A stretch of DNA of 19,497 nucleotides from Gemmatimonadota bacterium. GTDB taxonomy: Bacteria; Gemmatimonadota; Gemmatimonadetes; Longimicrobiales; RSA9. Numbering within the stretch: position 1 is the first letter of the stretch; each line of letters starts with the position of its first letter. The stretch lies in NCBI GenBank assembly GCA_040905425.1, contig JBBDRO010000081.1:1-19497 (forward strand), given 5' to 3'. The translations under genes and the position numbers were made by a program. Of this stretch, positions 79 through 18,075 are shown in pieces. A model generated the notes under the pieces. That model saw only the letters and a list, made by a program, of their open reading frames with translations. It was not told the origin of the DNA and did not search any database.

Positions 79-131
79 AAAAGCGACGAACACCGCGCCA
101 GCCCCCGGAGGCCAGCGCGGCGTCGTCGCTT
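79..131 (-). terminator. Probable intrinsic terminator of the PQQ dehydrogenase operon
   Basis: AAGCGACGA (81-89) and TCGTCGCTT (123-131) form a perfect inverted repeat, extended inward by CCGCGC/GCGCGG. The mismatches become G-U pairs on the minus strand and the stem ends in UUUU (rc of 79-82). It lies about 20 nt downstream of the stop at 151. Confidence 0.6.
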
Positions 132-150: not shown

Positions 151-1752
151 CTAGAAGATCCGCAGCGCCACCAGCGAGCCCGGCAGTCCCCCGCCGCTCA
201 CCGCCGAGACGATGTACTGCACGCCCTCGTGCATGAACGTCATGGGCGCGGTGTTGGTGGGCGCGGGCAGCTCCACCGTGGCCAGCTCCTCACCGGTGCG
301 CTTGTCCACGGCGTGCAGGAGCGGCGCGCCGCCGCGGCCCTCGCCGTAGATGAGCAGGGTGGGCGTGACCAGCGCGGTGGCGTGTGAGCCCTTCCCGGTG
401 ACGGGCAGCTCCACGCCCGCGAGCGCCGGATGGTTCTTGACGTTGTCCGGCGTGTCCCCGTTGGGGATCCACCAGAGGTGCTCGCCGGTGTTCAGGTCGA
501 CGGCGGTGATGCGGCCGTAGGGCGGCTTGAGGAGCGGCAGCCCCTGGGGGCCGCGCACGCCGCCCGGGCCCTGCGTCACCCAGTCCATGTTGGCGTCCGG
601 GGTCTCGGAGCCGGGGAAGAGCTGCGGCGCGCTGCACGCGCGGGTGGAGGCCACGTAGAGGATGCCGGTCTCGGGGTCCACCACGCTGCCGCCCGGGATG
701 TTGGTGCCGCCGTTGGCGCCCGGGCAGACGAGGGCGGCGTTGGTGCCGTCCGCCGCGCCCCGTATGGAGGGCGGGGCGAAGAGCGGCCCCATGCGGAAGC
801 CCTTCACCAGCTCCAGAGCCTCGGCGCGCAGCTCCGGTGTGAAGTCGATGAGGTCATCCTCCGTGATGCCCTGCTGCTCGTAGGGCGCGGGCCGCGTCGG
901 GAACGGCTGCGTGGGCGCGGTCCACTCGCCCGGCACGTCGGAGGCGGGCACGGGGCGCTCCTCGATGGGCCAGACCGGCTCGCCCGTCTCCCGGTTGAAG
1001 ACGTACGCAAAGCTCTGCTTGGTGGTCTGCACCACGGCGGGGATGCGCTCGCCGTCCACGGTGATGTCCACCACCGGGGGCGAGGAGTTGGTGATGTAGC
1101 CGCGCTCGATGGGCAGCCCGTTGTCCCCGTCGTAGGGGTAGCCCAGGTCGGCCAGGAGGTCCACGATGCCGTCCTCACCGAAGGCCTCCACCGGGCGGCC
1201 GGTCTCGGCGTCCAGCGCGATCAGGTAGAAGCCCGGGTCCACCACGTAGATGCGGCCGCGCCCGTCCACCACGTCGTAGGCCACGCCCTTGCCGTAGTTC
1301 TTGCGCATGGAGTCTTCCCAGCGCTTGGTGTGCCGCATGCGCCACATCCAGAGCGTCTCCCCCGTGGCCGGGTCGATGGCGATCACGGCGCGCCGCTGGC
1401 CCGCCACGGTGAAGAGCTTGCCCTCGGCGTAGATGGGGGTGGCGCGCAGGATGTTGTCCACGCTCGGCCCGTAGTTGTCCCCGCGCCACACCCACGCCAC
1501 CTCCAGCTCCTCGAAGTTGTCACGATCGATCTGGCTGAGCGGCGCGTGGCGCGTGCTGCCGGCGTCCCCCCAGGCATAGCCCCAGCCGCCGTTCTGTTGG
1601 GCGGCCAAGGGGGCGGCCAGCGCCAGGACGCTCACCGCGAGCAGGGCGATCAGGGGGATGGGTGCGGAGGCCCGGAGGGCGGTCAGGGGGACGGGTGCGG
1701 CGGCGCGGAGGGCGCGGGCACCGCTCAGGAGAAGCGAACGACCTCTGGACAT
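151..1752 (-). CDS. Secreted PQQ-dependent dehydrogenase (glucose/quinate-type beta-propeller), 533 aa, with an internal in-frame deletion of about 140 aa; possibly inactive or a pseudogene
   Basis: Signal peptide ending ...LAAQQ; PQQ propeller motifs (AIDPATGETLW, ALDAETG, AVDLNTGEHLW, AVDKRTGEEL); family motifs TKQSFAYVFNRETGEPVWPIEERPVP, PTQPFP and KPPYGRITA. Collinear with the paralog at 2310-4280 except at the junction SSPPVV|DITVDG. Confidence 0.85.
   Translation of the reverse strand: MSRGRSLLLSGARALRAAAPVPLTALRASAPIPLIALLAVSVLALAAPLAAQQNGGWGYAWGDAGSTRHAPLSQIDRDNFEELEVAWVWRGDNYGPSVDNILRATPIYAEGKLFTVAGQRRAVIAIDPATGETLWMWRMRHTKRWEDSMRKNYGKGVAYDVVDGRGRIYVVDPGFYLIALDAETGRPVEAFGEDGIVDLLADLGYPYDGDNGLPIERGYITNSSPPVVDITVDGERIPAVVQTTKQSFAYVFNRETGEPVWPIEERPVPASDVPGEWTAPTQPFPTRPAPYEQQGITEDDLIDFTPELRAEALELVKGFRMGPLFAPPSIRGAADGTNAALVCPGANGGTNIPGGSVVDPETGILYVASTRACSAPQLFPGSETPDANMDWVTQGPGGVRGPQGLPLLKPPYGRITAVDLNTGEHLWWIPNGDTPDNVKNHPALAGVELPVTGKGSHATALVTPTLLIYGEGRGGAPLLHAVDKRTGEELATVELPAPTNTAPMTFMHEGVQYIVSAVSGGGLPGSLVALRIF
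1643..1714. repeat. 33-bp imperfect tandem duplication (about 2.2 copies) in the signal-peptide region
   Basis: AGGGCGATCAGGGGGATGGGTGCGGAGGCCCGG / AGGGCGGTCAGGGGGACGGGTGCGGCGGCGCGG / AGGGCG; encodes ALRAAAPVPLT-ALRASAPIPLI-AL. Confidence 0.8.
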
Positions 1753-1759
1753 GGCGGCA

Positions 1760-2218
1760 TCACCGTTCGGGAGTGGGAGGGGGCGGGAGCCGCAGCTTGT
1801 CGAGCGCCTCGACGTCGGTGGGCAGGGGCTGCTCCCCGGCCGGCTGCTTGTTCAGCTCCAGGATGTAGGCCACCATGGCCGCCGCCTGCTCGGGGCTGAG
1901 ACTCCCCGGGAAGTCCTGCGGCATGGTGTCGCGGATATGCACGAAGAGCAGGCGCGCCGACTGGCCGAACCAGCGCTGCTTGAAGGTGTCCTCGGCAAAC
2001 TCGCGCGGGCCGTGGCAGAGCGAGCACTGGGCGTCGTAGATCTGCTTGCCCTGGTTGGCCTGCACCTCCGTGAAGTGGGCGCGCTTCTCCTGCGCCTGCG
2101 CCGGTGCCGCCGGTAGCACGGCCAGCGCCAGCAGCGCCAGGGTCAGCGCCGACGCGGGCGCCGCGGCGCGCGTGAGGAGTCGCGGAAATCGTCCGTGCGG
2201 TGGTAAAGCCATGGTCAT
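1760..2218 (-). CDS. Secreted monoheme class I cytochrome c (about 152 aa)
   Basis: Signal peptide ending PAQA-Q, heme motif CSLCH preceded by GKQIY, distal Met in DTMP, and C-terminal helix VAYIL. Start taken at ATG 2218 (2212 is an alternative) rather than 2368. Confidence 0.9.
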   Translation of the reverse strand: MTMALPPHGRFPRLLTRAAAPASALTLALLALAVLPAAPAQAQEKRAHFTEVQANQGKQIYDAQCSLCHGPREFAEDTFKQRWFGQSARLLFVHIRDTMPQDFPGSLSPEQAAAMVAYILELNKQPAGEQPLPTDVEALDKLRLPPPPTPER

Positions 2219-2309
2219 GCTATGTGTTGCGGGGGAGCGGCATCGACGCGACGCCTGGCTACCTTGTCGTGCAGCTATACCCACAATAGGGCAAAAAGAA
2301 CCGCACGCG

Positions 2310-4280
2310 CTACCCCCCGGGCAGCGCGAGCGCCACCAGCCGCGAGGGCACGTCGCCGCGCGGGTCACCGATCCAGAAGGCCACGTATTGCCGGCCCCCG
2401 ATGGCGTACGTCATGGGCGGGCTGGTCACCGGCGCGGGCAGCTCCAGCTCCCACAAGATCTCACCGGTGGCCTTGTCGTGGGCGCGCAGGAACGGCTCGC
2501 CGCCCGTGCCCTCCCCGGCAAAGAGCAGCGTGGCCGTGGCCAGCAGGACGGGGCGGGCGCTGCTGCCGGTGCGCGGCAGCTCGATGCCCAGCTCGGCCGC
2601 GGCCGCGCGGATCCGCTCCGGGGTGTCCCCCGCCGCCATCATCCAGGCGTGCTCGCCCGTGTTCAGGTCGATGGCCGTGAGGCGGCTGTAGGGCGGCTTG
2701 ATGAGCGGCAGCCCCTCCACCGTGGGCACGCGCCCGCCCGCGAAGACGTAGTCCATGTCCGAGCGCTCGGGGCGCGGCGCCACCAGCGCCAGGACCGAGG
2801 GGCTGGTGTAGGAGCCCACGAAGAGCAGCCCCGTCCCGGGGTCGAAGGCGCCGCCCTCCCAGTTCGTGCCGCCCAGCGTCCCGGGCAATGACAGCGTGCC
2901 GCGCGTGCTGTCGGGCGCCTCCCGCAGCGAGGCGGGGCTGTAGAGCCGCCCCAGCCGGAAGGGGCGCACGGCCTCCAGCGCGGCAGCGCGTAGCTCCGGC
3001 GTGAAGTCGATCAGATCCGCCTCGGTCACGCCCTGGCGGTCGTACGCCGCGGGCTTCGTGGGGAACGGCTGGGTGGGGCTGGCCCGCTCGCCGGGCACGT
3101 CGGAGGCGGGGACGGCCCGCTCCTCGATGGGCCACACCGGCTCCCCGGTGACGCGGTCGAAGACATAGGCAAAGGCCTGCTTGGTGAGTTGCACCACCGC
3201 TTCCACGGGGCGGCCGTCCACCACCACGTCCGCCAGGATGGGCGCCGTGGGGTTGTCCCGGTCCCAGATGTCGTGGCGGATGATCTGATAGTGCCACACC
3301 CGCTCCCCGGTGCGGGCGTCCAGGCACACCAGACTGGTGGAGAAGAGGTTGTCCCCGGGGCGGTGGCCGCCGTAGTAGTCCCCGGTGGCCGCCTCCACTG
3401 GCACATAGATGAGGCCGCGGCGCTCGTCCAGCGACAGCGGTGCCCACGCGCCGGCGTTGCCGGTGTAGCGCCAGGACTCGTTCTCCCACGTCTCCACCCC
3501 GTACTCGCCCGCGCGCGGGATGGTGTGGAAGCGCCAGCGGAGGGCGCCCGTGCGCACGTCGAAGGCCATCACGTAGCCGGGCACGTTCTCCCGCGACGGC
3601 GGCGCTAGCCCCACGGCCAGCGCAGGCGCCACCACCACCACGTCCTCGAAGATCAGCGGCGGCGAGGAGGACCCGATGACCGCCTCGTCGGGATCCAGCG
3701 GCACGCCCAGCGCCAGCTTCACGTCCACCATGCCGTCCTGGCCGAAGCCGGGCACGGGCTGGCCGGTGCGGGCGTCCAGCGCCACCAGCCGATAGCCGGG
3801 CGTGACCACCAGGATGCGCGCGTCCGTGCCGTCACTCCAGTAGGACACGCCGCGGCCCGAGTTGGCGCGCGGCGCGATGGCGTTGCGGCGCTCCTCGTCG
3901 AAGCGCCACACCCACTTCGTCTCGCCCGTGGAAGCGTCGGCCGCGATCACGGCGCGGTGCCGGCCGGCGGTGAAGTACAGCGTGCCGTCCACCGCCAGCG
4001 GCGTGCTCTGATTGCGGTACTCGGTCTCCCCCTCGAGTACGGCGTCCGAATGCCAGTTCCAAGCGACGGCGAGCCGGTCCACGTTCCCGGCGTGGATCCG
4101 GGCCAGCGGCGAGTAGCGCTCTCCGCCGGGACGGCCGTGGTGGTAGGGCCAGTCCAGGTCGGCAGCCAGGGAGGCCGCGGCGGCTCCGGCGGGCGGAGGG
4201 CCAGAGGCGCAGGCGGAGAGGGCGGCACAGGCCGCGCCGACCAGGACGAGCGCGCACGGCGCCGGAAGCAGTGCCTTCAT
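2310..4280 (-). CDS. PQQ-dependent dehydrogenase (glucose/quinate/shikimate type), probable lipoprotein, 656 aa
   Basis: Start MKALLPAP with lipobox LSA-C; complete propeller with NQSTPL, SGRGVSYW, GNAGAW, GDNLFSTSLVCLD and HDIWDRD motifs. It has neither the N-terminal multi-TM anchor of membrane GDH nor the vicinal Cys-Cys of methanol/alcohol dehydrogenases. Confidence 0.92.
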   Translation of the reverse strand: MKALLPAPCALVLVGAACAALSACASGPPPAGAAAASLAADLDWPYHHGRPGGERYSPLARIHAGNVDRLAVAWNWHSDAVLEGETEYRNQSTPLAVDGTLYFTAGRHRAVIAADASTGETKWVWRFDEERRNAIAPRANSGRGVSYWSDGTDARILVVTPGYRLVALDARTGQPVPGFGQDGMVDVKLALGVPLDPDEAVIGSSSPPLIFEDVVVVAPALAVGLAPPSRENVPGYVMAFDVRTGALRWRFHTIPRAGEYGVETWENESWRYTGNAGAWAPLSLDERRGLIYVPVEAATGDYYGGHRPGDNLFSTSLVCLDARTGERVWHYQIIRHDIWDRDNPTAPILADVVVDGRPVEAVVQLTKQAFAYVFDRVTGEPVWPIEERAVPASDVPGERASPTQPFPTKPAAYDRQGVTEADLIDFTPELRAAALEAVRPFRLGRLYSPASLREAPDSTRGTLSLPGTLGGTNWEGGAFDPGTGLLFVGSYTSPSVLALVAPRPERSDMDYVFAGGRVPTVEGLPLIKPPYSRLTAIDLNTGEHAWMMAAGDTPERIRAAAAELGIELPRTGSSARPVLLATATLLFAGEGTGGEPFLRAHDKATGEILWELELPAPVTSPPMTYAIGGRQYVAFWIGDPRGDVPSRLVALALPGG

Positions 4281-4329
4281 CGTGCAGTCCCTGTCAGACG
4301 TTGCGGGAGCGAGCGACTGGACGCCGGCA

Positions 4330-4360
4330 TTGACGCGGAAGGCCGACCCATTGAATGATA
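4330..4360. promoter_or_regulatory. Candidate divergent promoter elements
   Basis: In the 137-bp divergent gap: TTGACG (4330-4335) - 18 nt - AATGAT (4354-4359) on the plus strand, an overlapping TATCAT on the minus strand (4355-4360), and the palindrome CATTGAATG (4349-4357). Confidence 0.3.
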
Positions 4361-4417
4361 GGGGGTCCCCCCGCCACAAGGCGAGCCGCTTCTTCCCTCC
4401 CCCTTTCGGAGGAGCGC

Positions 4418-5236
4418 ATGCACGGGTATTTCCGCATCGTAGGACCGGCCGCGGCGCTGGTCCTCCTGGCGCCCACGCCGGCCGCCGCCCAACCCGCGCG
4501 GCAGCCGCTGCCGCTCGAGCCGCCACGCGCGGCCGGGCTGGCCGTGAGCCCCGTCTACGAGGGCTGGTACCGGAACCCGGACGGCACGTTCAGCCTCTCC
4601 TTCGGTTACCTCAACCGGAATCGCGAGGAGGTGGTGGAGGTGCCAATCGGACCGCGCAACTACATCGCGGGCGCGGAACCACCGGCGGGCCTGCCCACCC
4701 GTTTCCTGCCGCGCCGCCACTACGGCGTCTTCACCGTGAACGTGCCCGCCGACTTCGGCGCCGACGACGAGGTGGTGTGGACCGTGGCCATCCGCGGCCA
4801 GACCTTTGCCATCCCCGGCCGGCTGAACCCCCTCTACGAGATCGACGCGCTGGGCGCCCCGGCCACCGGGGACACGCCGCCGCTCCTGCGCTTCAGCCCC
4901 GGCGGCGGCGGCGCGAGCGGCCCGCACGGCGTGGTGGGCCCGCCGCTACAGGCGAGCGTGGGGGAGCCCCTCGACCTGGCCGTATGGGCCAGCGACGAGG
5001 AGGACGAGCGCGTCACGCTGCGCTGGACCAAGTGGTCGGGGCCGGGCGGCGTGGAATTCGCCGAGGCCACCCTGCGCACGGAAGTGGGGGAACCGCGCGC
5101 CGCCACCACCGCCACCTTCGACGCGCCCGGCGACTACGTGCTCTACGTGCGCGCCAACACGTCCGGCCTCTCCAGCGCCGGACACGAGCAGTGCTGCTGG
5201 ACCAATGGCTACCTGAACGTGACCGTCACGCGCTAG
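4418..5236 (+). CDS. Secreted hypothetical protein (272 aa) with a C-terminal Ig/PKD-like beta domain and a QCCWTN motif
   Basis: GGAGGAG RBS before ATG 4418; signal peptide ending AAA-Q; non-random motifs VSPVYEGWYRNPDG and FGYLNRN; PKD-like TATFDAPGDYVLYVRA; GC3-biased codons. Confidence 0.85.
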   Translation: MHGYFRIVGPAAALVLLAPTPAAAQPARQPLPLEPPRAAGLAVSPVYEGWYRNPDGTFSLSFGYLNRNREEVVEVPIGPRNYIAGAEPPAGLPTRFLPRRHYGVFTVNVPADFGADDEVVWTVAIRGQTFAIPGRLNPLYEIDALGAPATGDTPPLLRFSPGGGGASGPHGVVGPPLQASVGEPLDLAVWASDEEDERVTLRWTKWSGPGGVEFAEATLRTEVGEPRAATTATFDAPGDYVLYVRANTSGLSSAGHEQCCWTNGYLNVTVTR

Positions 5237-5266
5237 CACCGGGCCTGACCGGCCCCGGAGGCACAC

Positions 5267-6709
5267 ATGACAGAGCACTCGAAGTCCCGCAGGACGCTGT
5301 TCATTGCCGGCGGCACCGGCACGCTGATTGTGGCGGCGCTCACAGCTGTCGTGCTCGCCCCGCGCGTGGGCGCGGCGGACGCCGCGCGGCCACCCGCCGA
5401 ACAACCGGGCACCGCCGCGGAGGTGGATCCCTGGGGCGCGGGCCAGGACGCGCCGGTGACGTTCAGCGGGGACGTCGCTTCGATCCTGCAGCGCAGGTGT
5501 CAGGCGTGCCATCAGGAGGGCTCCATCGCGCCCATGTCCCTGGTGACCTACGAGGAGGCGCGCCCGTGGGGGCCGCTCATCCGGGACCGGGTGACCAAGC
5601 GCATCATGCCGCCGTGGCACCTGGACCGCGATCGGGGCATCCAGGCGTTCGCCAACGATCGGTCCCTGACGGACGAGGAGATCGCCACGCTCGTGCGCTG
5701 GGTGGACGCCGGCATGCCGGAGGGTGACCCGGCCGAGCTGCCGCCCCCCGTGGAGTGGCCGGACGGCAGGAACTTCGCGCTGTACGAGCGCCTGGGGCCG
5801 CCGGACCTGATCATCCGCTCGGATCCCTACGACGTGCCCGCTACCGGCCAGGACGCCTGGTGGCGGCCCACGGTGGAGACGGGCGTAGAGCGGCCGCGCT
5901 GGGTGCGGGCGGCGGAGATCAAGCCGTCCTATCCGGACGGGCGCAAGGTGGTGCACCACACGCTGGTCACGCTGCTGCAGAGTGAGGAGGGCATCACCGG
6001 GCTGGCCAGCAGCGCCGCGGGCGCCGTGGGGAGCCCCGGGCTACTCACGGAGTGGGCCATCGGCAAGGTGGGGGAGATCTATCCGGAGGACACCGGCAAG
6101 CTGCTCCTGCCCGGCTCGCGCATCCGCTTCGAGGTGCACTACTCCACCATGGCGGGCATCGAGGTGCCGGACAACCAGGTGGAGCTGGGGCTCTGGTTCT
6201 ACCCGGAGGACGTCACGCCGAAGTACCGGACCATCCTGCGCTTTTTCAACATTGCCGGGGACAGCGAGCTGGAGATCCCGCCGCACACCCTGACCACGCA
6301 CAGCAACACCTTCGTCATCCCGGCGCCCGCGCGCCTGGAGAGCTTCCAGCCCCATATGCACATGCGCGGGCGCGGCATGTCCATGGAAGCGCTCTATCCG
6401 GATGGCCGCAAGGAGCTGCTGAACATCGTCAGCGCGTTCCAGTGGAAGTGGCACAACAACTACATCTACGCCCCCGAGGCGGCGCCGCTGCTGCCCGCGG
6501 GCACGGTGCTCCAGTTCACCGCCTGGCATGACAACACGGCGTCCAATCCCGCCAATCCGGATCCCGACCAGTACGTCACCTGGGGGGACCGGACGGTGGA
6601 CGAGATGGCGCACGCGTGGGTGGGGATCACGTATCTGGAGCAGGCCGACTTCGAGCGTCTCGCGACCGAACGCGCCGCCGCGGCGGACCGTGTGGCGGCC
6701 AATCGGTAG
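5267..6709 (+). CDS. Cytochrome c / copper type II (PHM/DBH-like) monooxygenase fusion protein, 480 aa
   Basis: GGAGG RBS; N-terminal hydrophobic segment; CQACH (5498-5512) with distal Met in RIMPPW. Copper-ligand motifs VVHH, EVHY, PHMH and DEM appear in the order seen in peptidylglycine alpha-hydroxylating monooxygenase. Confidence 0.88.
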   Translation: MTEHSKSRRTLFIAGGTGTLIVAALTAVVLAPRVGAADAARPPAEQPGTAAEVDPWGAGQDAPVTFSGDVASILQRRCQACHQEGSIAPMSLVTYEEARPWGPLIRDRVTKRIMPPWHLDRDRGIQAFANDRSLTDEEIATLVRWVDAGMPEGDPAELPPPVEWPDGRNFALYERLGPPDLIIRSDPYDVPATGQDAWWRPTVETGVERPRWVRAAEIKPSYPDGRKVVHHTLVTLLQSEEGITGLASSAAGAVGSPGLLTEWAIGKVGEIYPEDTGKLLLPGSRIRFEVHYSTMAGIEVPDNQVELGLWFYPEDVTPKYRTILRFFNIAGDSELEIPPHTLTTHSNTFVIPAPARLESFQPHMHMRGRGMSMEALYPDGRKELLNIVSAFQWKWHNNYIYAPEAAPLLPAGTVLQFTAWHDNTASNPANPDPDQYVTWGDRTVDEMAHAWVGITYLEQADFERLATERAAAADRVAANR

Positions 6710-6734
6710 GCGGTCGTTGCCGGGTGGCCGGGCG

Positions 6735-7781
6735 GTGGCGGCGCGCTTGCGCCGCTCCAGTGCCGGGGAGCGGGTGGCGCGGGCCGGGCGGGTAAGCGCC
6801 GGGGCCGCGCTCCTGGCGCTGGCAGCGCTCACGGCGGGTAGCGCGGCCGGTCAGGCCACCCCGCCGGCCGAGCCGCCCCCCGAGTGGGGGCCCACCGCCG
6901 CGGACTACACCAACGTGCCCTACCCGCACCCGGTGGCCTTCCTGGAGTTCACCGTGCATGGGGCGGACGTGCGCCTGGCGTTCATGGACGTGGCGCCCGC
7001 GGGTCCGGCCAACGGGCGCACCGTCATGCTCTTCCACGGCATGAACTTCTTCGCCGCCGCCTTCGAGCCCACCATCGCGGCGCTGACGGCGGCGGGGTTC
7101 CGCGTGGTGGCCATCGACCGGCTCGGCTACGGGCGCTCCTCCAAGCCGATCATCCCCTACAACCTGCACCTGGCCGCCACCAACGCGAAGCGCGTGCTCG
7201 ACCACCTGGGTATCGAGCGGGCCGCCGTGGTGGGCCACTCCATGGGCGGTATGGTGGCCGCGCGCTTTGCCTTCAGCTATCCGGAGACCGCCACGCGGCT
7301 GGTGCTGGTCAACCCCATCGGCCTCACGGATCCGCGCGGTTCGCGGCCGTGGCGCGACCCGCAGGAGGCGTACGCCGGCGTGTTGCGCTCCACCAGCTAC
7401 GGGTCGATCCTGCGCAACCACATGCGCTACTATCCCGAGTGGCGCGCCGAGTATCTGCAGTGGGTCCGCTACCAGTACGGCCTCACGCTGAGTGGCGAGT
7501 GGCCGCGTCTGGCCCGGGTGCGGGCGCTGCAGCAGCAGATTCTCTACGAGGACCCGGTCGTGCACGACTGGCCGCACATCCGCACCCCCGCGCTGGTCAT
7601 CGGGGGTGAGGAGGACGGTCCCCGCTTCCCCGAGCTGGCGCGCAACGCGGCGGCCACACTCCCCGACGCCGAGCTGGTGCTCTTCCCGGGCGTGGGGCAC
7701 ATCCCGCAGTTCGAGATCCCGGAGCGTTTCCATGCGGAGCTGATCCGCTTCCTGGGAGCCGGGCCGGCGGGCGACGGCTGA
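6735..7781 (+). CDS. Secreted alpha/beta fold hydrolase (about 348 aa; start uncertain, GTG 6735 or 6774)
   Basis: HG oxyanion motif (LFHGMNF), DRLGYGRS, nucleophile GHSMGG, acid GGEED and His in GVGHIP; signal-like AALLALAALTAGSAAG-Q. Confidence 0.88.
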   Translation: MAARLRRSSAGERVARAGRVSAGAALLALAALTAGSAAGQATPPAEPPPEWGPTAADYTNVPYPHPVAFLEFTVHGADVRLAFMDVAPAGPANGRTVMLFHGMNFFAAAFEPTIAALTAAGFRVVAIDRLGYGRSSKPIIPYNLHLAATNAKRVLDHLGIERAAVVGHSMGGMVAARFAFSYPETATRLVLVNPIGLTDPRGSRPWRDPQEAYAGVLRSTSYGSILRNHMRYYPEWRAEYLQWVRYQYGLTLSGEWPRLARVRALQQQILYEDPVVHDWPHIRTPALVIGGEEDGPRFPELARNAAATLPDAELVLFPGVGHIPQFEIPERFHAELIRFLGAGPAGDG

Positions 7782-7829
7782 GGCCGGCGGCCCCTGGTGC
7801 CGCGGGCGGGCCGGCCTAGTTTCCCTCCC

Positions 7830-8990
7830 ATGCGCCTGGATCCCGGAGACGTGGCCCTCTGCGTGGCCGATGACGGCCCGCCCACCGCCTCGGGCGCTCG
7901 CCCCGCGGCCACGCCCATCGTCCAGACCTCCCTCTTTGCCCACCCCGACCTGAGCTCCCTCACGGACGCGCTGGCCGCCGAGCACGCCAGCCACGTCTAC
8001 ACGCGCGGGCAGAATCCCACGGTCGAGACGCTCGAACGCAAGCTGGCGCTGCTGGAAGGCGGGGAGGCGTGCAAGGCGTTCGCGTCCGGGATGGCGGCGG
8101 TGAGCGCCGTGCTCATGGGGCTCCTCGAGGCCGGCGACCATGTGCTGTTCGTCAACCACACCTACGGCCCCACGCTCCAGCTGGCCGAGCACCTGGGCCG
8201 CTTCGGCATCACTCATTCCACGGTCCTGGACGTCAGCCCCGAGGCCGTGGCCGCCGCACTCCGCCCGGAGACGAAGCTGGTGTGGCTGGAGAGCCCCGGC
8301 ACCATGCTCTTCCGCCTGGTGGACGTGGCGGCGGTGGCGGAGCTGGCGCGCAAGCGCGGCGTCCTCACGTGCATGGACAACTCCTGGGCCACCCCGCTGC
8401 TGCAGAAGCCGCTGGCACTCGGCGTGGACATGGTGGTGCACAGCGCCACCAAGTATCTCGGTGGCCACAGTGACGTGGTGGCGGGCGCGTTGGTCACCAG
8501 CGCCGCGCGCCTGCAGCGGATCTTCTACCGCGCCTACCTGCTGAATGGCGGTGCGCTGGCCCCCTTCAACGCCTTCCTGGTGCTGCGCGGGTTGCGCACG
8601 CTGCCCGTGCGCCTGCGCCAGCACGAGGCGGACGCCCTGGAGGTGGCGCGCTACCTGGAGACGCACGATGCCGTGGCCGCCGTCCATCATCCCGCGTTGC
8701 GCGAGCCGGAGCTGGCCGCGCGCCAGTTGGCCGGCACCACCGGCCTCTTCAGCTTCGAGCTGGCGGACGCCTCCTACGCGCGCGTGCGCCGCTTCATCGA
8801 CGCGCTCGAGCACTTCCGCATCGGCGTGAGCTGGGGCGGCGTGGAGAGCCTGGTCATCACGCCGAGCCGGGAGGACAACGCCGCCGCCCTGACCGCCCGC
8901 GGCATCCCGCCCGGCCTCGTGCGTCTGTCCGTGGGCCTGGAGAGCGCGGAGCTGCTCATCGCGGACCTGGACCAGGCACTGTCATTCTAA
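7830..8990 (+). CDS. Cys/Met-metabolism PLP-dependent lyase, cystathionine beta-lyase (MetC)-like, 386 aa
   Basis: YTRGQNPT, FASGMAA, WLESP, DNSWATP, PLP lysine in HSATKYLGGHSD, GVSWGGVESL and VRLSVGLE. Confidence 0.92.
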   Translation: MRLDPGDVALCVADDGPPTASGARPAATPIVQTSLFAHPDLSSLTDALAAEHASHVYTRGQNPTVETLERKLALLEGGEACKAFASGMAAVSAVLMGLLEAGDHVLFVNHTYGPTLQLAEHLGRFGITHSTVLDVSPEAVAAALRPETKLVWLESPGTMLFRLVDVAAVAELARKRGVLTCMDNSWATPLLQKPLALGVDMVVHSATKYLGGHSDVVAGALVTSAARLQRIFYRAYLLNGGALAPFNAFLVLRGLRTLPVRLRQHEADALEVARYLETHDAVAAVHHPALREPELAARQLAGTTGLFSFELADASYARVRRFIDALEHFRIGVSWGGVESLVITPSREDNAAALTARGIPPGLVRLSVGLESAELLIADLDQALSF

Positions 8991-9066
8991 GCGACGATGC
9001 CCGTCAGCTTCCACGCGCGCCGCGCCCGCGGGCGCAGCTGATCCTCCCGTGCCACCGTCCGACCCC

Positions 9067-10518
9067 ATGAGCGCACGTCCCCCACTCACGCTGGCCGAGG
9101 CACTGCTCCCCGTGCTCACCATGTTCGCCCTCTTCACGGCGGGCGCGCTCACGCTGGGCACGAGCGGCGAGCTGCTGGTGGCGGTGCTGCTGGCCGCGGC
9201 GGCCGTGGCCGGCGCCGTGGCCACCCGCCACGGCCACGGCTGGGAGGAGATCCAGCGCGCCACCGGCCAGAAGCTGGCCGGGGTGCTGCCCGCCCTGCTC
9301 ATCCTGCTCTCCATCGGACTTCTCATTGCCACCTGGGTGCTCTCCGGCACCATCCCCTACCTGGTCTACTGGGGCGTGCAGCTGGTGAGCCCGCGCTATC
9401 TGGCGCTCACCGCCTTCCTGGCCACCGCCACCATGTCCCTCTTCACCGGCACCTCCTGGGGCTCGGCGGGCACCATCGGCGTAGCGCTCATGGGCACCGC
9501 GGCCGCGCTCGGCGCGCCGCTGCCGCTGGTGGCGGGCGCCGTGGTCTCCGGCGCCTACTTCGGGGACAAGATGTCCCCGCTCTCCGACTCCACGAACATC
9601 GCCGCCATCGGCGCGGGCTCGGAGCTCTACGCGCACATCCGGCACATGGTGTGGACGGCGGGGCCGTCGTTCGTGGTGGCGCTCGTGGCCTACGCCCTGC
9701 TCGGCGGCGGCGGCGCGGCCGCGGGCGGGATCCCGGAGGACGCCCGCCGCCTGCTCGGCGAGCTGGAGGCCGTCTTTACCCTGAACGCGCTTGTGCTGAT
9801 CCCGGCGGCCATCGTGGTGTGGAGCATCGTGCGCCGTGTGCCGGCCGCCCTGGCCATCACCGCCTCCTCCGTGGTGGCGCTCGTGATGGGGGTGTGGCTG
9901 CAGGGCTTCGGCTTCGGGGACGCCGTGACGGCGGCCGTGGCCGGCTTCCGCGCCGACATGATCCCGGGCATCGACCCCGCCGCCGTCGGCCAGAACTTCC
10001 TGGTCCTCGTGGAGCGGGGCGGCCTCTACTCCATGGCCACCACACTCATCGTGGTCATCGCGGCGTTCCTGCTGGCCGGCGCCATGGATGCCGCGGGCGC
10101 CCTGGACCTGCTCATCGGCCGCATGCTGGCCGCGGTGCGCTCCGTCTTCGGCCTGATCGCCGCCACCATGGCCTCGGGCGCCACCATGATCGCGCTCACC
10201 AGCCACGGCGGCGTGACGGCACTGGTCATCGGCGGCCTCTTCCAGAAGGCGTACGACGAGCGCGGCCTGGCGCGCGTGAACCTGTCCCGCTCGCTGGAGG
10301 ACTCGGTGACCATCACCGAGCCGCTCATGCCGTGGACCGTCTCCGCGGTCTTCATGGCCACCACGCTCGGCGTGCCCACCACCGCGTACGCGCCCTGGGC
10401 CGTGTTCTGTTATGGCGGGACGTGCTTCTCACTGCTGGTGGCGGGTCTGTACCGGTGGACGGGGCGGGGCGTGCGGGCCACAGCAGAACGCTCTGCTGGG
10501 CCACCACCCGTCAGGTGA
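9067..10518 (+). CDS. nhaC: NhaC-family Na+/H+ antiporter-like transporter (possible amino-acid transporter), about 483 aa
   Basis: Multiple TM segments; family motifs GTSWGSAGTIG, GAYFGDKMSPLSDSTN and NLSRSLEDSVT..PLMPW. Start at ATG 9067 (GTG 9049 is an alternative). Confidence 0.9.
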   Translation: MSARPPLTLAEALLPVLTMFALFTAGALTLGTSGELLVAVLLAAAAVAGAVATRHGHGWEEIQRATGQKLAGVLPALLILLSIGLLIATWVLSGTIPYLVYWGVQLVSPRYLALTAFLATATMSLFTGTSWGSAGTIGVALMGTAAALGAPLPLVAGAVVSGAYFGDKMSPLSDSTNIAAIGAGSELYAHIRHMVWTAGPSFVVALVAYALLGGGGAAAGGIPEDARRLLGELEAVFTLNALVLIPAAIVVWSIVRRVPAALAITASSVVALVMGVWLQGFGFGDAVTAAVAGFRADMIPGIDPAAVGQNFLVLVERGGLYSMATTLIVVIAAFLLAGAMDAAGALDLLIGRMLAAVRSVFGLIAATMASGATMIALTSHGGVTALVIGGLFQKAYDERGLARVNLSRSLEDSVTITEPLMPWTVSAVFMATTLGVPTTAYAPWAVFCYGGTCFSLLVAGLYRWTGRGVRATAERSAGPPPVR

Positions 10519-11037: not shown

Positions 11038-12507
<1,470 letters not shown>

Positions 12508-12541
12508 GGTTGCGTCCTTCCTTCGTGTGCACGATTGCCGT

Positions 12542-13369
12542 CTACTCCTCCACCACGATGCCCACGCCCTCGGGTGTGCTCACCAGCCGGGGCAGGATGG
12601 CCCGCACGCTCCGCTCGCGGAAGGCGGCCAACGCCTCCGCCACTGAGGCAAAGTCCGCCAGCTCCTCCAGCGTACGCACGGTGGGAAACACCATGGGCAA
12701 CTCGCCCCGGGTGAAGCGCTCCAGCGCACTTCGCGGCGTGACCCAGGTCAGGTCCGTCATCTCACGCGCGTCACTCCGCGCGGCGCATCCGCCGGGCAGC
12801 TCGACCAGGAAGAAGTGCGTGTCATAGCGGCGCGGCTCCGCCTCGGGCGTGATCCAGTGCGCCGCGTGTACCAGGGCGGCCGGCTCCAACCGGAGGGACT
12901 CCCCCTCCAGCAGGTCGGCCAGCGAAGCGCTCCCCGCCATCAGCCGCTCCCGCCACGCCTCCAGCGCCGGATCGGCGGACGCATCCGGCGCCCACCCACC
13001 GTCGGGCCGGCGCGCCAGCAGCACCCCGGTCTCCTCGAAGACTTCACGGGCGGCCGCCACGCGGTATGAAGGCCGCGGTTCCCGCGGCACCTCCCCGGCG
13101 CCCGCCAGCGCCCGCTCATCCCGGTCCGCCCGGTCCACCCGCCCACCCGGAAAGACCCATGCGCCCGGCACGAACGCCGCGCCCAGGTGGCGGCGCATCA
13201 ACAGCACTTCGGGGCCGCTGGCCCCGTCACGCAGGAGCACGGCGGTGGCGGCCGGCCGGGGTTCCGCGGGCGTATCGGAGGGCTCGGCCAGGTACGTCAG
13301 CAGGCGCTCGGCAAACCCTTCCGGAAGCCGCTCGCGGGGAATCACGAAGCGGGGATCCGGCACGCTCAT
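12542..13369 (-). CDS. Nudix hydrolase (split Nudix box, NUDT19-like subfamily), 275 aa
   Basis: PRPAATAVLLRD, WVFPGGRVD...AAAREVFEETG and HWITPEAEPRRYDTHFF; ATGA overlap with the upstream gene. Confidence 0.9.
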   Translation of the reverse strand: MSVPDPRFVIPRERLPEGFAERLLTYLAEPSDTPAEPRPAATAVLLRDGASGPEVLLMRRHLGAAFVPGAWVFPGGRVDRADRDERALAGAGEVPREPRPSYRVAAAREVFEETGVLLARRPDGGWAPDASADPALEAWRERLMAGSASLADLLEGESLRLEPAALVHAAHWITPEAEPRRYDTHFFLVELPGGCAARSDAREMTDLTWVTPRSALERFTRGELPMVFPTVRTLEELADFASVAEALAAFRERSVRAILPRLVSTPEGVGIVVEE

Positions 13370-14331
13370 CGGCCTTCCTGGTTGCGATAGCGGATGCCGC
13401 CCATCCAGGCCGCCACGTCCGCGGCGTTGACCACCCCCACCACCGTGTCACCCTCCACCACGAGGACGCGTCCGGTCGGCGCCGCGCGCAGCTCCTCGAT
13501 GACCTCCGTCATGGGCAAGCTGGCCGCCACGCGCACCTCGTCGTCGGCGCCGTGGAAGCCCGCCGCGACAGGGCGCATGAGGCGCGCCGCGCTGGCGCCA
13601 TCCAGCGCCGAGCGGGCCAGGTGCTGGCGCACGCTGGAGCGGGCGGCGTTGCCCAGGAACCAGCCGATGAACATCAGCCACAGACCGCTCACGATCTGTC
13701 CCCCCACGGCCAGCAGCACACCGAAGCCGATGAGCAGCCACCCCAACCCCTGGCCCGCGCGTGCCGCCACGCGGGTGGCCCGGGTCATGTCACCGGTCAC
13801 CTTCCACACCGCGGCGCGCAGCAGCCTACCCCCGTCCAGCGGGAAGCCCGGCAGTAGGTTGAAGACGGCGAGCGCCAGGTTCAGCGCCGCCAGGTAGGTG
13901 GCCACCACCGCCACGGCGGGGGACGCGTCGGCCGCCGCCGCTGCCCAGCCGATGAGCCAGAAGAGCGCGGCCAGACCGAAGCTGGCCAGCGGCCCCACGC
14001 CGGCGATCTGGAACTCGTCCCCCGGTGTGGTGGACTCCGAGCGCGTGCGCGCCAGCCCGCCGAAGACAAAGAGCGTGATGCCGTCCACCTCGATGCCCTT
14101 CACCCGTGCTACCACCGCGTGCGCCAGCTCGTGGATGATCAGGGACACGAAGAAGAGCACGGTGCCGCCCAAGCCCATGGCCAGGTAGGCCACGGAGGAG
14201 AGCCCCGGCGCCGCCGCGGGGAAAACGCCCGCCGTGAAGGACCACAGGATGAGGAAGAAGAGGATGAGCCAGGAGTAGTCCGCCGAGATGGGAAACCCCA
14301 TCATGCGCCCGAGGGAGAAGCCGCGTGCCAT
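13366..14331 (-). CDS. Site-2 protease (peptidase M50) with a C-terminal CBS-like domain, 321 aa
   Basis: HELAH zinc motif, FNLLPGFPLDGG and several TM helices; ATG overlaps the hutF stop (TGATG). Confidence 0.92.
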   Translation of the reverse strand: MARGFSLGRMMGFPISADYSWLILFFLILWSFTAGVFPAAAPGLSSVAYLAMGLGGTVLFFVSLIIHELAHAVVARVKGIEVDGITLFVFGGLARTRSESTTPGDEFQIAGVGPLASFGLAALFWLIGWAAAAADASPAVAVVATYLAALNLALAVFNLLPGFPLDGGRLLRAAVWKVTGDMTRATRVAARAGQGLGWLLIGFGVLLAVGGQIVSGLWLMFIGWFLGNAARSSVRQHLARSALDGASAARLMRPVAAGFHGADDEVRVAASLPMTEVIEELRAAPTGRVLVVEGDTVVGVVNAADVAAWMGGIRYRNQEGR

Positions 14332-15809
14332 CAGGCGCCTCCCCGGCGGCACGCCACATCACGAAACGCCGCCTGCGCCTCCGCCTCGAGCGGGTGGACG
14401 CCGTCCACCACACGGTGCACCCCACCCACCCAGACATCACGCACGGCGTCCAGCGGGCCGGAGAGCGCGAGTAGCGGCGCCAGGGTGTCCGGCGACCAGC
14501 CGGCCAGCGCCCGGTGCTCCAGCTCCACGCTCACCAGATCGGCCAGGGCGCCCGGCTCGATCTTCCCGGCGTGCAGGCCCAGCGCCCGGGCACCGCCCGC
14601 GCTGGCCGCCTCCAGCAGCGCCGGGGCGGCGGCCAGGCGGTCGTGGTCCGCGCGGGCCAGCACCACCCGCCGCCTGCTGCGCAGTCGCTCATGATATTCC
14701 AGGGAACGCATCTCGTCGAAGGGATCGATGACGCTCTGGCTGTCCGTGCCCAGGGCCAGCGGCACCCCGGCGGCCAGCAGCTCCGCCGCAGGGAGGATGC
14801 CGTCCCCCAGATCCCGCTCCGTGGTGGGGCACGCGCAGACGGTGGCGCCGCTCGCCGCGAGCGCCTGGATCTCCGCCTGATCGAGGTGCGTGGCGTGCAC
14901 CACGGTGGTGTCCCCGCCGAGCGCGCCCTCCGCGTCCAGCAGCGCCACCGGCCGCACTCCGTAGGCCTCCAGGCAGGCGGCCACCTCGGCCGGTTGCTCC
15001 GCGGCGTGCACATGGAGCGGAACCGCCCGGGCACGCGCCCACGCCGCCAGTTCTCCCAGCCACGCGCGCGGCACCGCGCGCACGCTGTGCGGGGCAACGC
15101 CGACCGTGGCCAGCCCCTGGCCGCCCTTCGACTGGCCGCCCTTCGACTCGCCGCCCTCCGACTGGCCGTCACCCTTCTGGCCGCCACCCTGCTGGCCACC
15201 GCCCTCCTGGCCGACCGCCGCCAGCAGGCTGGCTGTGCGCTCCAGGAACGCCTCCCGCGTGGGCGCCGCGAAGCGCCGTTGCTCGGGCGCGAGCGGCGCG
15301 CCGATGCCGCCCGTGGCGTAACACACGTTCAGCAGGCGGATGCGGATCCCCGCGGAGCGGGCGGCCGCGAGTACGCGCAGCGCCAGTTCGTTCGGGTCCG
15401 CGTAAGGCGCGCCGTTCGGCTGCATGTGCAGGTAGTGGAACTCACCCACGGCGGTCCAGCCGGCGCGCAGCATCTCCACGAAGCAGAAGCGCGCCACCGC
15501 CTCCACCTCCGCGGGCTCCAGCGCTCCCGCCGCGGCGTACATGGCCTGGCGCCAGCTCCAGAAATCGGCGTGCGGTTGGTCCGCCGGCCGCCACTGCGTC
15601 CGGCCGCGCAGCAGGCGCTGGAAGGCATGCGAATGGGCGTTGACGAAGCCGGGCAGGAGCGCGCGCGCCGGCAGGTGCAGGGCGTCGTCGCTTACATCCG
15701 TAGCGGGGATCAGGGCACGGATCTGCCCTGTTTCCGGATCCAGCACCACGGCCAGGCCGGCCTCGAACCGGCCGTCCCGCCACAGTAGTTCGGGGACGAG
15801 TGTGGTCAC
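14331..15809 (-). CDS. hutF: Formimidoylglutamate deiminase, 492 aa
   Basis: NAHSHAFQR, DFWSWR..MY, EFHYLH, APHSVRAV, HVHAAEQ, CPTTERDLGDG and GTDS; near hutU. GTG start at 15809 overlaps the upstream stop (GTGA). Confidence 0.92.
   Translation of the reverse strand: MTTLVPELLWRDGRFEAGLAVVLDPETGQIRALIPATDVSDDALHLPARALLPGFVNAHSHAFQRLLRGRTQWRPADQPHADFWSWRQAMYAAAGALEPAEVEAVARFCFVEMLRAGWTAVGEFHYLHMQPNGAPYADPNELALRVLAAARSAGIRIRLLNVCYATGGIGAPLAPEQRRFAAPTREAFLERTASLLAAVGQEGGGQQGGGQKGDGQSEGGESKGGQSKGGQGLATVGVAPHSVRAVPRAWLGELAAWARARAVPLHVHAAEQPAEVAACLEAYGVRPVALLDAEGALGGDTTVVHATHLDQAEIQALAASGATVCACPTTERDLGDGILPAAELLAAGVPLALGTDSQSVIDPFDEMRSLEYHERLRSRRRVVLARADHDRLAAAPALLEAASAGGARALGLHAGKIEPGALADLVSVELEHRALAGWSPDTLAPLLALSGPLDAVRDVWVGGVHRVVDGVHPLEAEAQAAFRDVACRRGGA
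15117..15206. repeat. 15-bp minisatellite, six degenerate copies, in frame within hutF
   Basis: CTGGCCGCCCTTCGA x2, CTCGCCGCCCTCCGA, CTGGCCGTCACCCTT, CTGGCCGCCACCCTG, CTGGCCACCGCCCTC, then a partial CTGGCCG; encodes GQEGG-GQQGG-GQKGD-GQSEG-GESKG-GQSKG-GQ. Confidence 0.9.
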
Positions 15810-16339
15810 GAGCCGCCCGGAGCGGTGCGCGCCACCGGCGGCGGTTCGAACCACGCGCCGGGGTCGTAGCAGCCTACCAACGCGTCGGGCGCGGCGGGCA
15901 GCGCGGCGTGCAGCGCGCGGCGGATCTCCCGCGGATCGGTGGCGGTGCCCACCCAGCGGGCGCCGGCATAGCGGTAGGTCGAGTCGGCCAGTTGCACCGC
16001 CCATACGCCCGGGCGCGTGCGGTCCTCCAGGCGGAGCTCCACCAGGTACCACCCGTCCACCCGGATGATGGCCCCGGCCTCCACCGCGCCCGGCCATTCG
16101 CCCGCCGCGCCCAGCTCCGGTTCGGTGGCCAGCAGCCCCACGATGAGGGACCGCCCTTCGGGGGAGTCGGGCAGCACCAGCAGCACCGAGTCGCAGGCCT
16201 CTTCGGCAAGCCGGGGCACCACCACGGTGTCCGGGGCGGGCAGCACCTCACCGGGCTCCTGCCCCGCGTCGGCGCCCCCGTTGCCGCCGCCGCACGCCGC
16301 CAGCGCCAGCAGAAAGGTTGGCAGGAGCCAGCGCCTCAC
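15806..16339 (-). CDS. Hypothetical lipoprotein, 177 aa
   Basis: GGAGG RBS before GTG 16339; MRRWLLPTFLLALAA-C lipobox; stop overlaps the hutF start. Confidence 0.78.
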   Translation of the reverse strand: MRRWLLPTFLLALAACGGGNGGADAGQEPGEVLPAPDTVVVPRLAEEACDSVLLVLPDSPEGRSLIVGLLATEPELGAAGEWPGAVEAGAIIRVDGWYLVELRLEDRTRPGVWAVQLADSTYRYAGARWVGTATDPREIRRALHAALPAAPDALVGCYDPGAWFEPPPVARTAPGGS

Positions 16340-16377
16340 TGGCTGCCCTCCCGCATCGGCAGGCAGCGCTGCCCACC

Positions 16378-18075
16378 TCACGCGCGGCCCTCCAGCATGG
16401 GCAGGCGGACCCCGTCGCGGCGCGCCGTGGCCAGCGCCTCCTCGTAGCCGGCGTCCGCATGGCGCGCCACGCCGATGGCCGGATCATTGGTGAGCACCCG
16501 CTCGATGCGCATGCGCATTTCCGGTGTACCATCGGCCACGAGCACCTGGCCGGCGTGCAGCGAGCGGCCGATCCCCACGCCGCCACCGTGGTGGAAGGAC
16601 ACCCAGCTGGCGCCGCTGGCCGTGTTCAGGAGGGCGTTCAGGATCGGCCAGTCGGCCACCGCGTCGCTGCCGTCCTTCATAGCCTCGGTCTCCCGGTAGG
16701 GGGACGCCACGGAGCCGGTGTCCAGATGGTCCCGGCCGATGACCACGGGGGCGGACAGCTCGCCGGAGGCCACCAGGTCGTTCAGCGCCACCCCGAAGCG
16801 GGCGCGCTCCCCCAGGCCCAGCCAGCAGATGCGGGCGGGCAGCCCCTGGAAGCGGACCTTCTCCCGGGCCATGCGGATCCAGCGGGCCAGGTGGGCGTCC
16901 TCGGGGAAGAGCTCCAGGACCAGGTCGTCGGTACGGTGGATGTCGGCCGGGTCGCCGGAGAGGGCGGCCCAGCGGAACGGCCCCTTGCCGGCGCAGAAGA
17001 GCGGGCGCACGTAGGCTGGCACGAAGCCCGGGAAGGCAAAGGCGTCCGCGCAGCCCCCGTCGCGCGCCTGGCCGCGCAGGTTGTTGCCGTAGTCGAAGGT
17101 GACGGCACCCCGACCCATGAGCTCCACCATGGCCCGGCAGTGCGCCGCCATGCCCGCCATGGAGCGGCGGACGTATTCGTCGGGGTCGGCGCGCCGCAGC
17201 TCCTCGGCTGCCGCCAGCCCCAGGCCGGGCGGCACATACCCGTTCAGGGCGTCGTGCGCGGAGGTCTGGTCCGTCAGGACGTCCGGCGTGACGTCGCGCC
17301 TCACCAGCTCGGGCAGCACCTCGGCGCAGTTGCCCACCAGGCCCACGCTGAGCGCCTCGCCGCGCTCGGCGGCGCCCGTGACCCAGGCCAGCGCCTCGTC
17401 CAGCGAGTGGCTCATGCGATCGCAGTAGTCCGTGTCCACACGGCGGCGGATGCGCGCCTCGTCCACGTCCACGACCAGGATGACGCCCTCGTTCATGGTG
17501 GCGGCCAGCGGCTGGGCGCCGCCCATGCCGCCCATGCCGCCGGTGAGCACCCAGCGGCCCTTCAGGGTGCCGCCGAAGTGCGCGCGCGCCACCGCGCCGA
17601 AGGTCTCGTAGGTGCCCTGCAGGATGCCCTGCGTGCCGATGTAGATCCACGAGCCGGCCGTCATCTGGCCGTACATCATGAGCCCCTGCCGCTCCAACTC
17701 CCGGAAGGTGGCCCAGTCGGCCCAGTCCCCGACCAGGTTGCTGTTGGCAATGAGCACGCGGGGGGCGTGCGCATGGGTGCGGAACACGCCTACCGGCTTA
17801 CCGCTCTGCACCAGCAGCGTCTCGTCGTCTCCCAGGGTGCGCAGGGTGCGTACGATGGCGTCGTACGCCTCCCAGCTCCGTGCGGCGCGGCCGGTGCCGC
17901 CGTACACCACCAGGTCATCGGGCCGCTCGGCCACCTCGGGATCCAGATTGTTCATGAGCATGCGGAGCGCGCCCTCCTGCTGCCAGCCGCGGCAGGAGAT
18001 GGTCGTGCCGCGCGGCGCCCGCACGGGACGCGCACCCGCGAGCGTAACGCTCCCGGTATTCCCCAGGTCACCCAT
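16378..18075 (-). CDS. hutU: Urocanate hydratase, 565 aa
   Basis: [61 protein letters not shown] and HHGGGVG; GGAGG RBS. Confidence 0.98.

Follow-up and report, generated by a model that had tools for sequence, protein, structure and literature searches.

Peptidylglycine alpha-hydroxylating monooxygenase (PHM; 1phm, 1sdw) and dopamine beta-hydroxylase (DBH; 4zel) are non-coupled binuclear copper monooxygenases that in animals produce amidated hormones and noradrenaline, and have been studied as eukaryotic enzymes that are fed with electrons by ascorbate. Both display a two-domain fold in which one copper is held by a His-His...His set of ligands and the other by a His-x-His...Met set. The ligands of DBH have been described (PMC4846438), as have the three PHM residues, Arg240, Asn316 and Tyr318, that bind the peptide C-terminus (PMC12164859); both accounts, in the sections concerned, present the open versus closed working state of these enzymes as still argued. 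In the relevant part of another source, PHM is presented as widespread among eukaryotes, with no mention of a cytochrome fusion (PMC8812541). Here, we report a computational analysis of a bacterial relative encoded in a stretch of 19,497 nucleotides (the window) at the start of contig C81 (JBBDRO010000081.1) of a Gemmatimonadota genome (4.12 Mb, 70% GC, 96.7% complete). In this protein (hereafter the monooxygenase), a cytochrome c domain is fused to a PHM/DBH-like core. The adjacent gene encodes a Cys-Cys (CC) protein that, judging from gene pairing and complex prediction, is very probably its second subunit, and nearby lie genes for an intact and a broken dehydrogenase of the pyrroloquinoline quinone (PQQ) type, designated PQQ2 and PQQ1, a free cytochrome c and an alpha/beta hydrolase. 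The locus consists of two modules side by side, not of one six-gene chain: an intact part comprising the CC protein, the monooxygenase and PQQ2, and a decaying part comprising the cytochrome and PQQ1. This split, together with the second subunit, is the best-supported new point of the analysis.

Electron delivery to copper oxygenases by cytochromes has precedents. In the fungal cellobiose dehydrogenase, the cytochrome reduces a lytic polysaccharide monooxygenase (LPMO). A cytochrome from Cellvibrio, CjX183, activates a bacterial LPMO (PMC8981238). By analogy, a c- or b-type cytochrome could replace ascorbate here as well, with the parallel confined to the electron route; unlike the present enzyme, LPMOs are monocopper proteins of another fold, and the cytochrome at our locus is fused to the oxygenase rather than to a dehydrogenase. 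Copper monooxygenases fed by oxidation of their own product are exemplified by ammonia monooxygenase with hydroxylamine oxidoreductase (AMO/HAO) and by the proposed coupling of particulate methane monooxygenase (pMMO) to methanol dehydrogenase. AMO and pMMO are membrane enzymes of unrelated fold, and the likeness to our locus, suggested by gene context, would lie in the logic of electron recycling.

A preliminary description of this DNA had proposed a haem c/two-copper PHM-like enzyme, and this enzyme proved to be real and conserved. The N-terminal helical cytochrome domain, which stands where DBH has a DOMON domain, carries a CxxCH motif (C78, C81, H82), and the core contains all six copper ligands, His230, His231 and His291 for CuH and His363, His365 and Met447 for CuM. 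An AlphaFold model (confidence score pLDDT 85.4) matches DBH 4zel (Z 18.9, root-mean-square deviation 3.5, 262 aligned) and PHM 1sdw (Z 18.5, deviation 3.1, 244 aligned), with the next-best fold at Z 8.8; a separate structure search likewise retrieved DBH/PHM (E 4e-12). No variation is seen in the haem motif, in Met114 or in the six copper ligands among 114 close homologues. When distant homologues are included, the five histidine ligands as well as C81, H82 and M114 are kept in 127/127 aligned rows, C78 in 126, and M447 in 125, the other two rows having gaps. Met114 is the probable distal ligand of the fused haem, and cytochrome c assembly genes are present, with PF01578 over the cut-off three times in the genome; with these features, the domain fits a class I cytochrome c. 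We infer that haem and metal are loaded and that the protein acts as a monooxygenase.

The relationship is remote at the sequence level. Compared with DBH and PHM, the bacterial enzyme is only 14-17% identical, has a core without cysteines, and is accompanied by a separate immunoglobulin (Ig)-like partner. A sequence search of the PDB yielded only DBH (E 0.8) and a profile search added nothing useful; the Pfam copper-monooxygenase models did not match the protein, and PF03712 is found on 12-29% of members in related Atlas clusters. The family itself, a variant of a known enzyme type that seems not to have been studied, is large, accounting for 7784 of 8000 scored candidates; a literature search, which did not reach most subscription journals and supplements, found no study of it. 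Two distant paralogues occur in the same genome (C77:5091-7349 and C78:78787-80583), one with TPR-like repeats and the other with a redoxin-like N-terminus, as read by eye; neither has a CC partner gene.

With respect to substrate, the PHM residues Arg240, Asn316 and Tyr318 are not kept and correspond to Gln361, His449 and Trp451, as mapped by offset from the ligands with the His242 numbering of PHM. The local E-V-H and Q-x-H-x-H motifs align with DBH. Because the residues with which PHM grips its substrate are replaced and the local motifs resemble those of DBH, the enzyme is unlikely to act on a glycine-extended peptide. We also considered peptide amidation of the PAM type; with neither an equivalent of Arg240 nor a PAL-like gene in the window, it is unlikely at this locus. 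Elsewhere, 15 of 75 CC-linked monooxygenases have an Arg at the position of PHM Arg240 (column 361). To judge by this residue, these enzymes may bind carboxylates and would be the best candidates for peptide substrates.

The CC protein is a near-obligate partner of the monooxygenase. The preliminary description had noted the Cys-Cys protein and suggested a gene-neighbourhood check, which it passed; what had been overlooked is its role as a partner and probable subunit. Among close monooxygenase loci, a CC gene is adjacent in 10 of 13, and the remaining three lack a flank on one side, as against 0 of 44 distant loci. In a survey of 251 genomes of the class, 219 CC matches were found in 75 genomes, about two-thirds of which come from three genera. 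We hand-picked 60 regions for genus spread among 150 listed of these matches. In 59 of them a monooxygenase gene lies near the CC gene, within 700 bp in 58 and at 1171 bp in one, in either gene order; it is absent from the remaining region. In two acidobacterial genomes, the monooxygenase adjoins 37/38 and 19/21 CC genes (56/59 in total). Two natural fusions of CC protein and monooxygenase, P0241 and P0371, which are 38% identical to each other, join the two through a short linker with no second signal peptide. In a midpoint-rooted FastTree phylogeny, the 75 CC-linked monooxygenases group together with three unlabelled rows, of which two are at contig edges and one is a tandem copy.

Searches with the CC protein against Pfam, PDB sequences and named Atlas families gave no match, and fold searches with its model (pLDDT 89.8) returned only generic Ig-like structures (best Z 10.8), with residues 28-145 barely covered. 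The motif Cys259-Cys260-Trp261 (CCW) is present in 90/90 aligned hits and in 78 of 91 full-length representatives. As the two cysteines are the only ones in a protein with a periplasmic setting, they would most simply form a vicinal disulfide. His256 was considered as a conserved metal ligand and dropped, being present in only 40 of the 90 aligned hits. At E <=1e-30, 743 clusters (formed at 50% identity) match the partner profile, and Ig-repeat proteins account for some of these. One record, P0248, has the CC domain fused to cupin domains.

Complex prediction, which the preliminary description had also suggested, points to a heterodimer: the pair scored 0.85 and the best of three controls 0.00. 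That mark is reached by 116 of 157 solved pairs and 2 of 215 mismatched pairs, a calibration that is only rough for our own alignments. At least 78% of contacts agree between runs, and the pLDDT of the partner is at least 87. Since no sequence relatives of the CC protein were found among solved structures, the score is unlikely to stem from a structure already familiar to the predictor. In the model, the contacts of the monooxygenase fall on both copper domains (188-200, 292, 333-339, 431-445), beside His291 and just ahead of Met447; those of the CC protein include 255-258, directly ahead of the CCW motif.

The intact dehydrogenase, PQQ2, belongs to the same propeller family as the Type I/II PQQ alcohol dehydrogenases (1yiq, 1kv9). 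Its propeller is complete and retains the Trp and Asp positions of the quinohaemoprotein 1yiq, which we take to be the stacking and the catalytic residue; it differs from those enzymes in having no membrane helices, no haem and no Cys-Cys vicinal disulfide. A lipobox (Cys24) suggests that PQQ2 is a lipoprotein. It scores below the cut-offs both for the membrane glucose/quinate dehydrogenases (TIGR03074, 374 versus 833, matching from profile position 143) and for the 'acido-empty-quinoprotein' family (TIGR04528, 248 versus 650). Compared with L071, a locus about 93% identical, PQQ2 has a ratio of nonsynonymous to synonymous substitution rates (dN/dS) of 0.09, and the monooxygenase one of 0.07. 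Apart from PQQ2 and PQQ1, no dehydrogenase gene of the PQQ family was found in the genome.

The neighbourhoods of the monooxygenase show a link to PQQ dehydrogenases that is real but loose. A PQQ gene occurs in 22 of the 60 CC regions, where 3.9 were expected from the paralogue count of each genome (7.4 if paralogues are doubled), and in 14, representing 8 of 19 genera, it lies no more than 1.3 kb from the pair, against 0.55 expected (1.1 if doubled). The 23 adjacent dehydrogenases fall into four groups at 50% and nine at 60% identity and are scattered over the monooxygenase tree. The enrichment suggested in the preliminary description is thus borne out, whereas a fixed cluster is not, as most regions lack such a gene. 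Of 135 called immediate flanks, 18 are PQQ genes or fusions of cytochrome and PQQ domains, in about nine independent groups; after 25 apparent same-genus repeats had been dropped from the 112 other flanks, no further Pfam family appeared more than three times among the 87 scanned. PQQ2-like genes (E <=1e-200) are present in 67/75 CC-positive and 1/176 CC-negative genomes, and in genus g16 the five genomes without a CC gene also lack a PQQ2-like gene. Genome G152 repeats the split between modules, with a PQQ2-type gene adjoining the CC-monooxygenase pair and a PQQ1-type gene adjoining the cytochrome. On this evidence, we consider the chances about balanced that PQQ2 is either the direct electron donor or the next enzyme of the pathway.

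Several observations weigh against such a role. No PQQ gene is found within about 9 kb in 38 of the 60 regions, and an adjacent one accompanies only 10 of the 56 units of the two acidobacterial genomes. In these genomes PQQ genes adjoin each other at a similar excess (12/67 versus 2.7 expected; 6/30 versus 0.4), so that part of the link reflects tandem duplication or a general tendency of exported enzymes to cluster. The genome profiles can be explained by shared lifestyle and kinship because the hydrolase has a similar profile (48/75 CC-positive versus 4/176 CC-negative genomes); kin genomes do not count as independent, the 1e-200 cut was set after the data had been seen, and only four candidates were scored per genome. 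PQQ2-like proteins do not form one supported clade, and the Glu and Asn positions of 1yiq, ligands of the Ca or lanthanide ion, are not cleanly aligned in PQQ2. The PQQ dehydrogenase could accordingly be a catabolic enzyme that is merely co-located and feeds respiration, with the fused haem reduced from the periplasmic cytochrome c pool. This would fit the scarcity of PQQ neighbours, their clustering with each other, their diversity, with several unrelated subfamilies and gene orders, and the mixture of other neighbours, which includes peptidases, amidases and transporters. The prominence of PQQ genes among the flanks and their joint absence with CC in genus g16 speak against it, and we regard it as a somewhat unlikely account.

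The supply of cofactor is relevant to any role of PQQ2. The preliminary description had called the system self-contained; given that no pqqC was found in this genome and that a probable importer is present, it is not. The same search detected pqqC over the cut-off in 24 of the 251 class genomes; for pqqB, only a weak sub-cut-off hit was seen here. The candidate importer is a PqqU-like TonB receptor (C20:22283-24259, E 8.9e-63) in which F99, R365 and R536 align; the column of R304 coincides with a gap, and an Arg stands at the neighbouring position, an ambiguous point that counts against the assignment. The PqqU signature is given as Y/F/W99, R304 and R365, and PqqU has been reported from 183 Gemmatimonadetes genomes, in the part of the source that deals with it (PMC12124388). 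Most likely, the dehydrogenase runs on scavenged PQQ, with a cofactor other than PQQ as a lesser possibility. Across the class, genomes hardly ever combine pqqC with the CC-monooxygenase pair (pqqC in 1/75 CC-positive versus 23/176 CC-negative genomes), and CC-positive genomes are the richest in PQQ-family genes; this near-exclusion may be due to phylogeny alone.

The other dehydrogenase and the free cytochrome form a separate, decaying module. The preliminary description counted two PQQ dehydrogenases, but PQQ1 covers only Pfam PQQ positions 1-168 and 297-595, having lost 140 codons in frame near position 1075; intact homologues are longer by 420 bases. The lost part corresponds approximately to residues 211-349 of PQQ2, a stretch aligned with the active-site motifs of 1yiq (Glu, Trp, Asn, Asp). 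An assembly artefact was considered and rejected: mismatch-free contigs bridge the junction in three of four metagenome runs (X1, X2, X3), so the deletion is not an error of a single assembly. These are contigs rather than raw reads, from three samples of one study, one of which is possibly the source of the window DNA. In L071, PQQ1 is gone entirely while the other five genes are kept. As for the cytochrome, we fetched 16 loci around its best homologues or PQQ1-type genes; in 10 it adjoins a dehydrogenase that shares 56-73% identity with PQQ1 and 40-59% with PQQ2, and neither a CC nor a monooxygenase gene was found in the 16. PQQ1 falls in a clade of cytochrome-linked dehydrogenases (support 0.99), and a homologous cytochrome domain is fused ahead of PQQ domains in eight loci. 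Such fusions support the step from dehydrogenase to cytochrome and are silent on that from cytochrome to monooxygenase. Going by these associations, the free cytochrome is the partner of the PQQ1-type dehydrogenase, not of the monooxygenase.

These results bear directly on the chain put forward in the preliminary description, in which two dehydrogenases reduce the free cytochrome c and this in turn the fused haem, as a self-contained six-gene system. Cassettes with an intact cytochrome, dehydrogenase and CC-monooxygenase pair do recur, as separate genes in L079, L087 and L088 and with cytochrome-PQQ fusions in L104, L106, L108, L114, L124 and L137, and L071 retains the cytochrome despite the loss of PQQ1. 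Set against this are the broken or absent PQQ1, the missing pqqC, the pairing of the nearest cytochrome homologues with PQQ1-type genes in loci without the monooxygenase, the PQQ2-type neighbours in L019, L021, L025, L026 and L118 that have no such cytochrome nearby, and the dN/dS of the cytochrome relative to L071, the highest of the seven genes compared (0.40, from only 91 codons). The chain is improbable here; as intact cassettes exist at the loci just listed, it may hold for those. With one dehydrogenase broken, the window is not the best locus for addressing the question of the donor.

It is likewise doubtful that the copper enzyme is no small-molecule hydroxylase at all. MauG builds a protein quinone in its partner, and by comparison the enzyme might oxidize the Cys-Cys-Trp of the CC protein, or function as an oxidase or a sink for electrons in which the cysteines bind metal, as the strict conservation of CCW, its sole two cysteines and the modelled contact just ahead of it would allow; however, a strand of the Ig beta-sandwich starts at Trp261, the confident contacts include neither Cys259 nor Cys260, the full set of six PHM-type ligands is retained, and the presence of as many as 54 paralogues in a genome suits a range of different substrates better than a single maturation task.

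We therefore return to the two-subunit haem/copper monooxygenase, with PQQ2 as donor or next enzyme and the cytochrome-PQQ1 pair separate, a combination to which we give, as a whole, an even chance. The working unit would be a periplasmic enzyme composed of the cytochrome c/PHM-like chain and the CC protein, which would dock across the cleft that separates the copper domains and probably shape the substrate site through its vicinal disulfide loop. Electrons would enter singly via the enzyme's own His/Met haem c and pass to CuH and CuM, so that ascorbate would not be needed, and would drive the O2-dependent hydroxylation of a small, non-peptidylglycine substrate. That the enzyme is an O2-dependent hydroxylase reduced via its own haem is, in our judgement, likely. 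The lipoprotein PQQ2, loaded with scavenged PQQ, would act directly on the fused haem as donor or be the next enzyme. The potential of PQQ lies below that of a His/Met haem c and near or below those of the copper sites, and a route from PQQ through haem c to copper is plausible on these values. A more speculative scheme is a redox-neutral cascade in which the monooxygenase attacks an unactivated C-H bond, the hydroxylated product is oxidized by the PQQ dehydrogenase and the two electrons set free return via the fused haem to recharge the coppers, with the CC protein clamping the copper domains and gating an open/closed cycle; we view this as a tentative and rather unlikely proposal.

The six open reading frames lie on two strands around a divergent gap, in the layout of the preliminary description (Table 1). 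By eye, all six have signal-peptide-like starts, in agreement with its claim that they are exported. The gaps on the minus strand are 91 bp between PQQ2 and the cytochrome and 7 bp between the latter and PQQ1; those on the plus strand are 30 bp and about 64 bp, the latter ahead of the probable GTG start of the hydrolase. A sigma-70-like site in the divergent gap (4330-4359, plus strand; 0.3 expected by chance) is a weak lead, and the consensus scan found two terminator-like sites in the region with 1.9 expected. Close homologues come from Gemmatimonadota records, and the window DNA recurs in sediment metagenome runs, all from one study.

Table 1. Features of the locus in window coordinates
Feature	Position	Strand	Basis or remark
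Terminator-like hairpin directly past the PQQ1 stop	89-124	-	consensus match only
PQQ1, broken PQQ-type dehydrogenase	151-1752	-	Pfam PQQ match in two pieces
Free monohaem cytochrome c (C65/C68)	1760-2218	-	PF13442, E 1e-9
PQQ2, intact PQQ-type beta-propeller dehydrogenase, 656 aa	2310-4280	-	PF01011 positions 1-595, E 2.4e-187
Divergent intergenic gap, 137 bp	4281-4417	.	sequence
Cys-Cys (CC) protein, 272 aa	4418-5236	+	exported, two Ig-like beta-sandwich domains
Cytochrome c-PHM/DBH-fold fusion, 480 aa, exported	5267-6709	+	motifs and AlphaFold model
Alpha/beta hydrolase, exported	6774-7781	+	PF00561, E 8.5e-27; start uncertain, 6774 or 6735

The hydrolase was considered as a core member of the system, which adjacency counts do not support: when the neighbouring proteins are grouped by clustering, its family occurs in 5 of 86 loci, and it is rarely adjacent elsewhere. 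It is an accessory gene. Close behind it, at 7797-10518 on the plus strand, are a Cys/Met pyridoxal phosphate enzyme and an NhaC-family antiporter, an order shared by L071 only. The consensus scan found no terminator-like site between these and the hydrolase, and the plus-strand run may continue into them. The minus-strand genes at 11038-18075 appear ordinary and unrelated: a MoxR-like ATPase, a NUDIX hydrolase, an M50 peptidase with a CBS domain, an amidohydrolase interrupted by a short run of Gly/Gln/Lys repeats, and urocanase.

Further associations were seen at other loci. A PAL-like NHL propeller lies near the CC-monooxygenase pair in 11 of 86 loci (L114, L124, L137, L129, L133 and others; two are on the same contig). 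It matches the PAM lyase 3fvz with E 1.5e-16, and TRIM-type NHL domains score higher. Three genera have a cassette, which does not occur in the window, of CC protein, monooxygenase, cytochrome-PQQ fusion and NHL propeller, a hint that some subfamilies couple hydroxylation to a subsequent cleavage of a C-N bond. A DUF1592/DUF1552/ankyrin trio is found near the pair in 7-8 loci (L083, L097-L100, L107, L111, L126). Copy numbers reach 54 for the monooxygenase, 38 for CC and at least 67 for the PQQ family in a genome of 4.2 Mb (G260, containing L016), and 32, 21 and 30, respectively, in one of 5.8 Mb (G261).

For the study of this class of enzymes, a soluble bacterial form that carries its own haem would offer ascorbate-free, one-electron input together with an optical reporter, and a partner that, as predicted, extends over both copper domains would be a natural handle on domain closure. 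In practical terms, the monooxygenase would best be expressed together with the CC protein. The large family could supply new catalysts of C-H hydroxylation. If the redox-neutral cascade is real, then, with dozens of copies per genome, it would be a major unrecognized route for the attack on dissolved organic matter by abundant but uncultured members of the Gemmatimonadota and Acidobacteriota.

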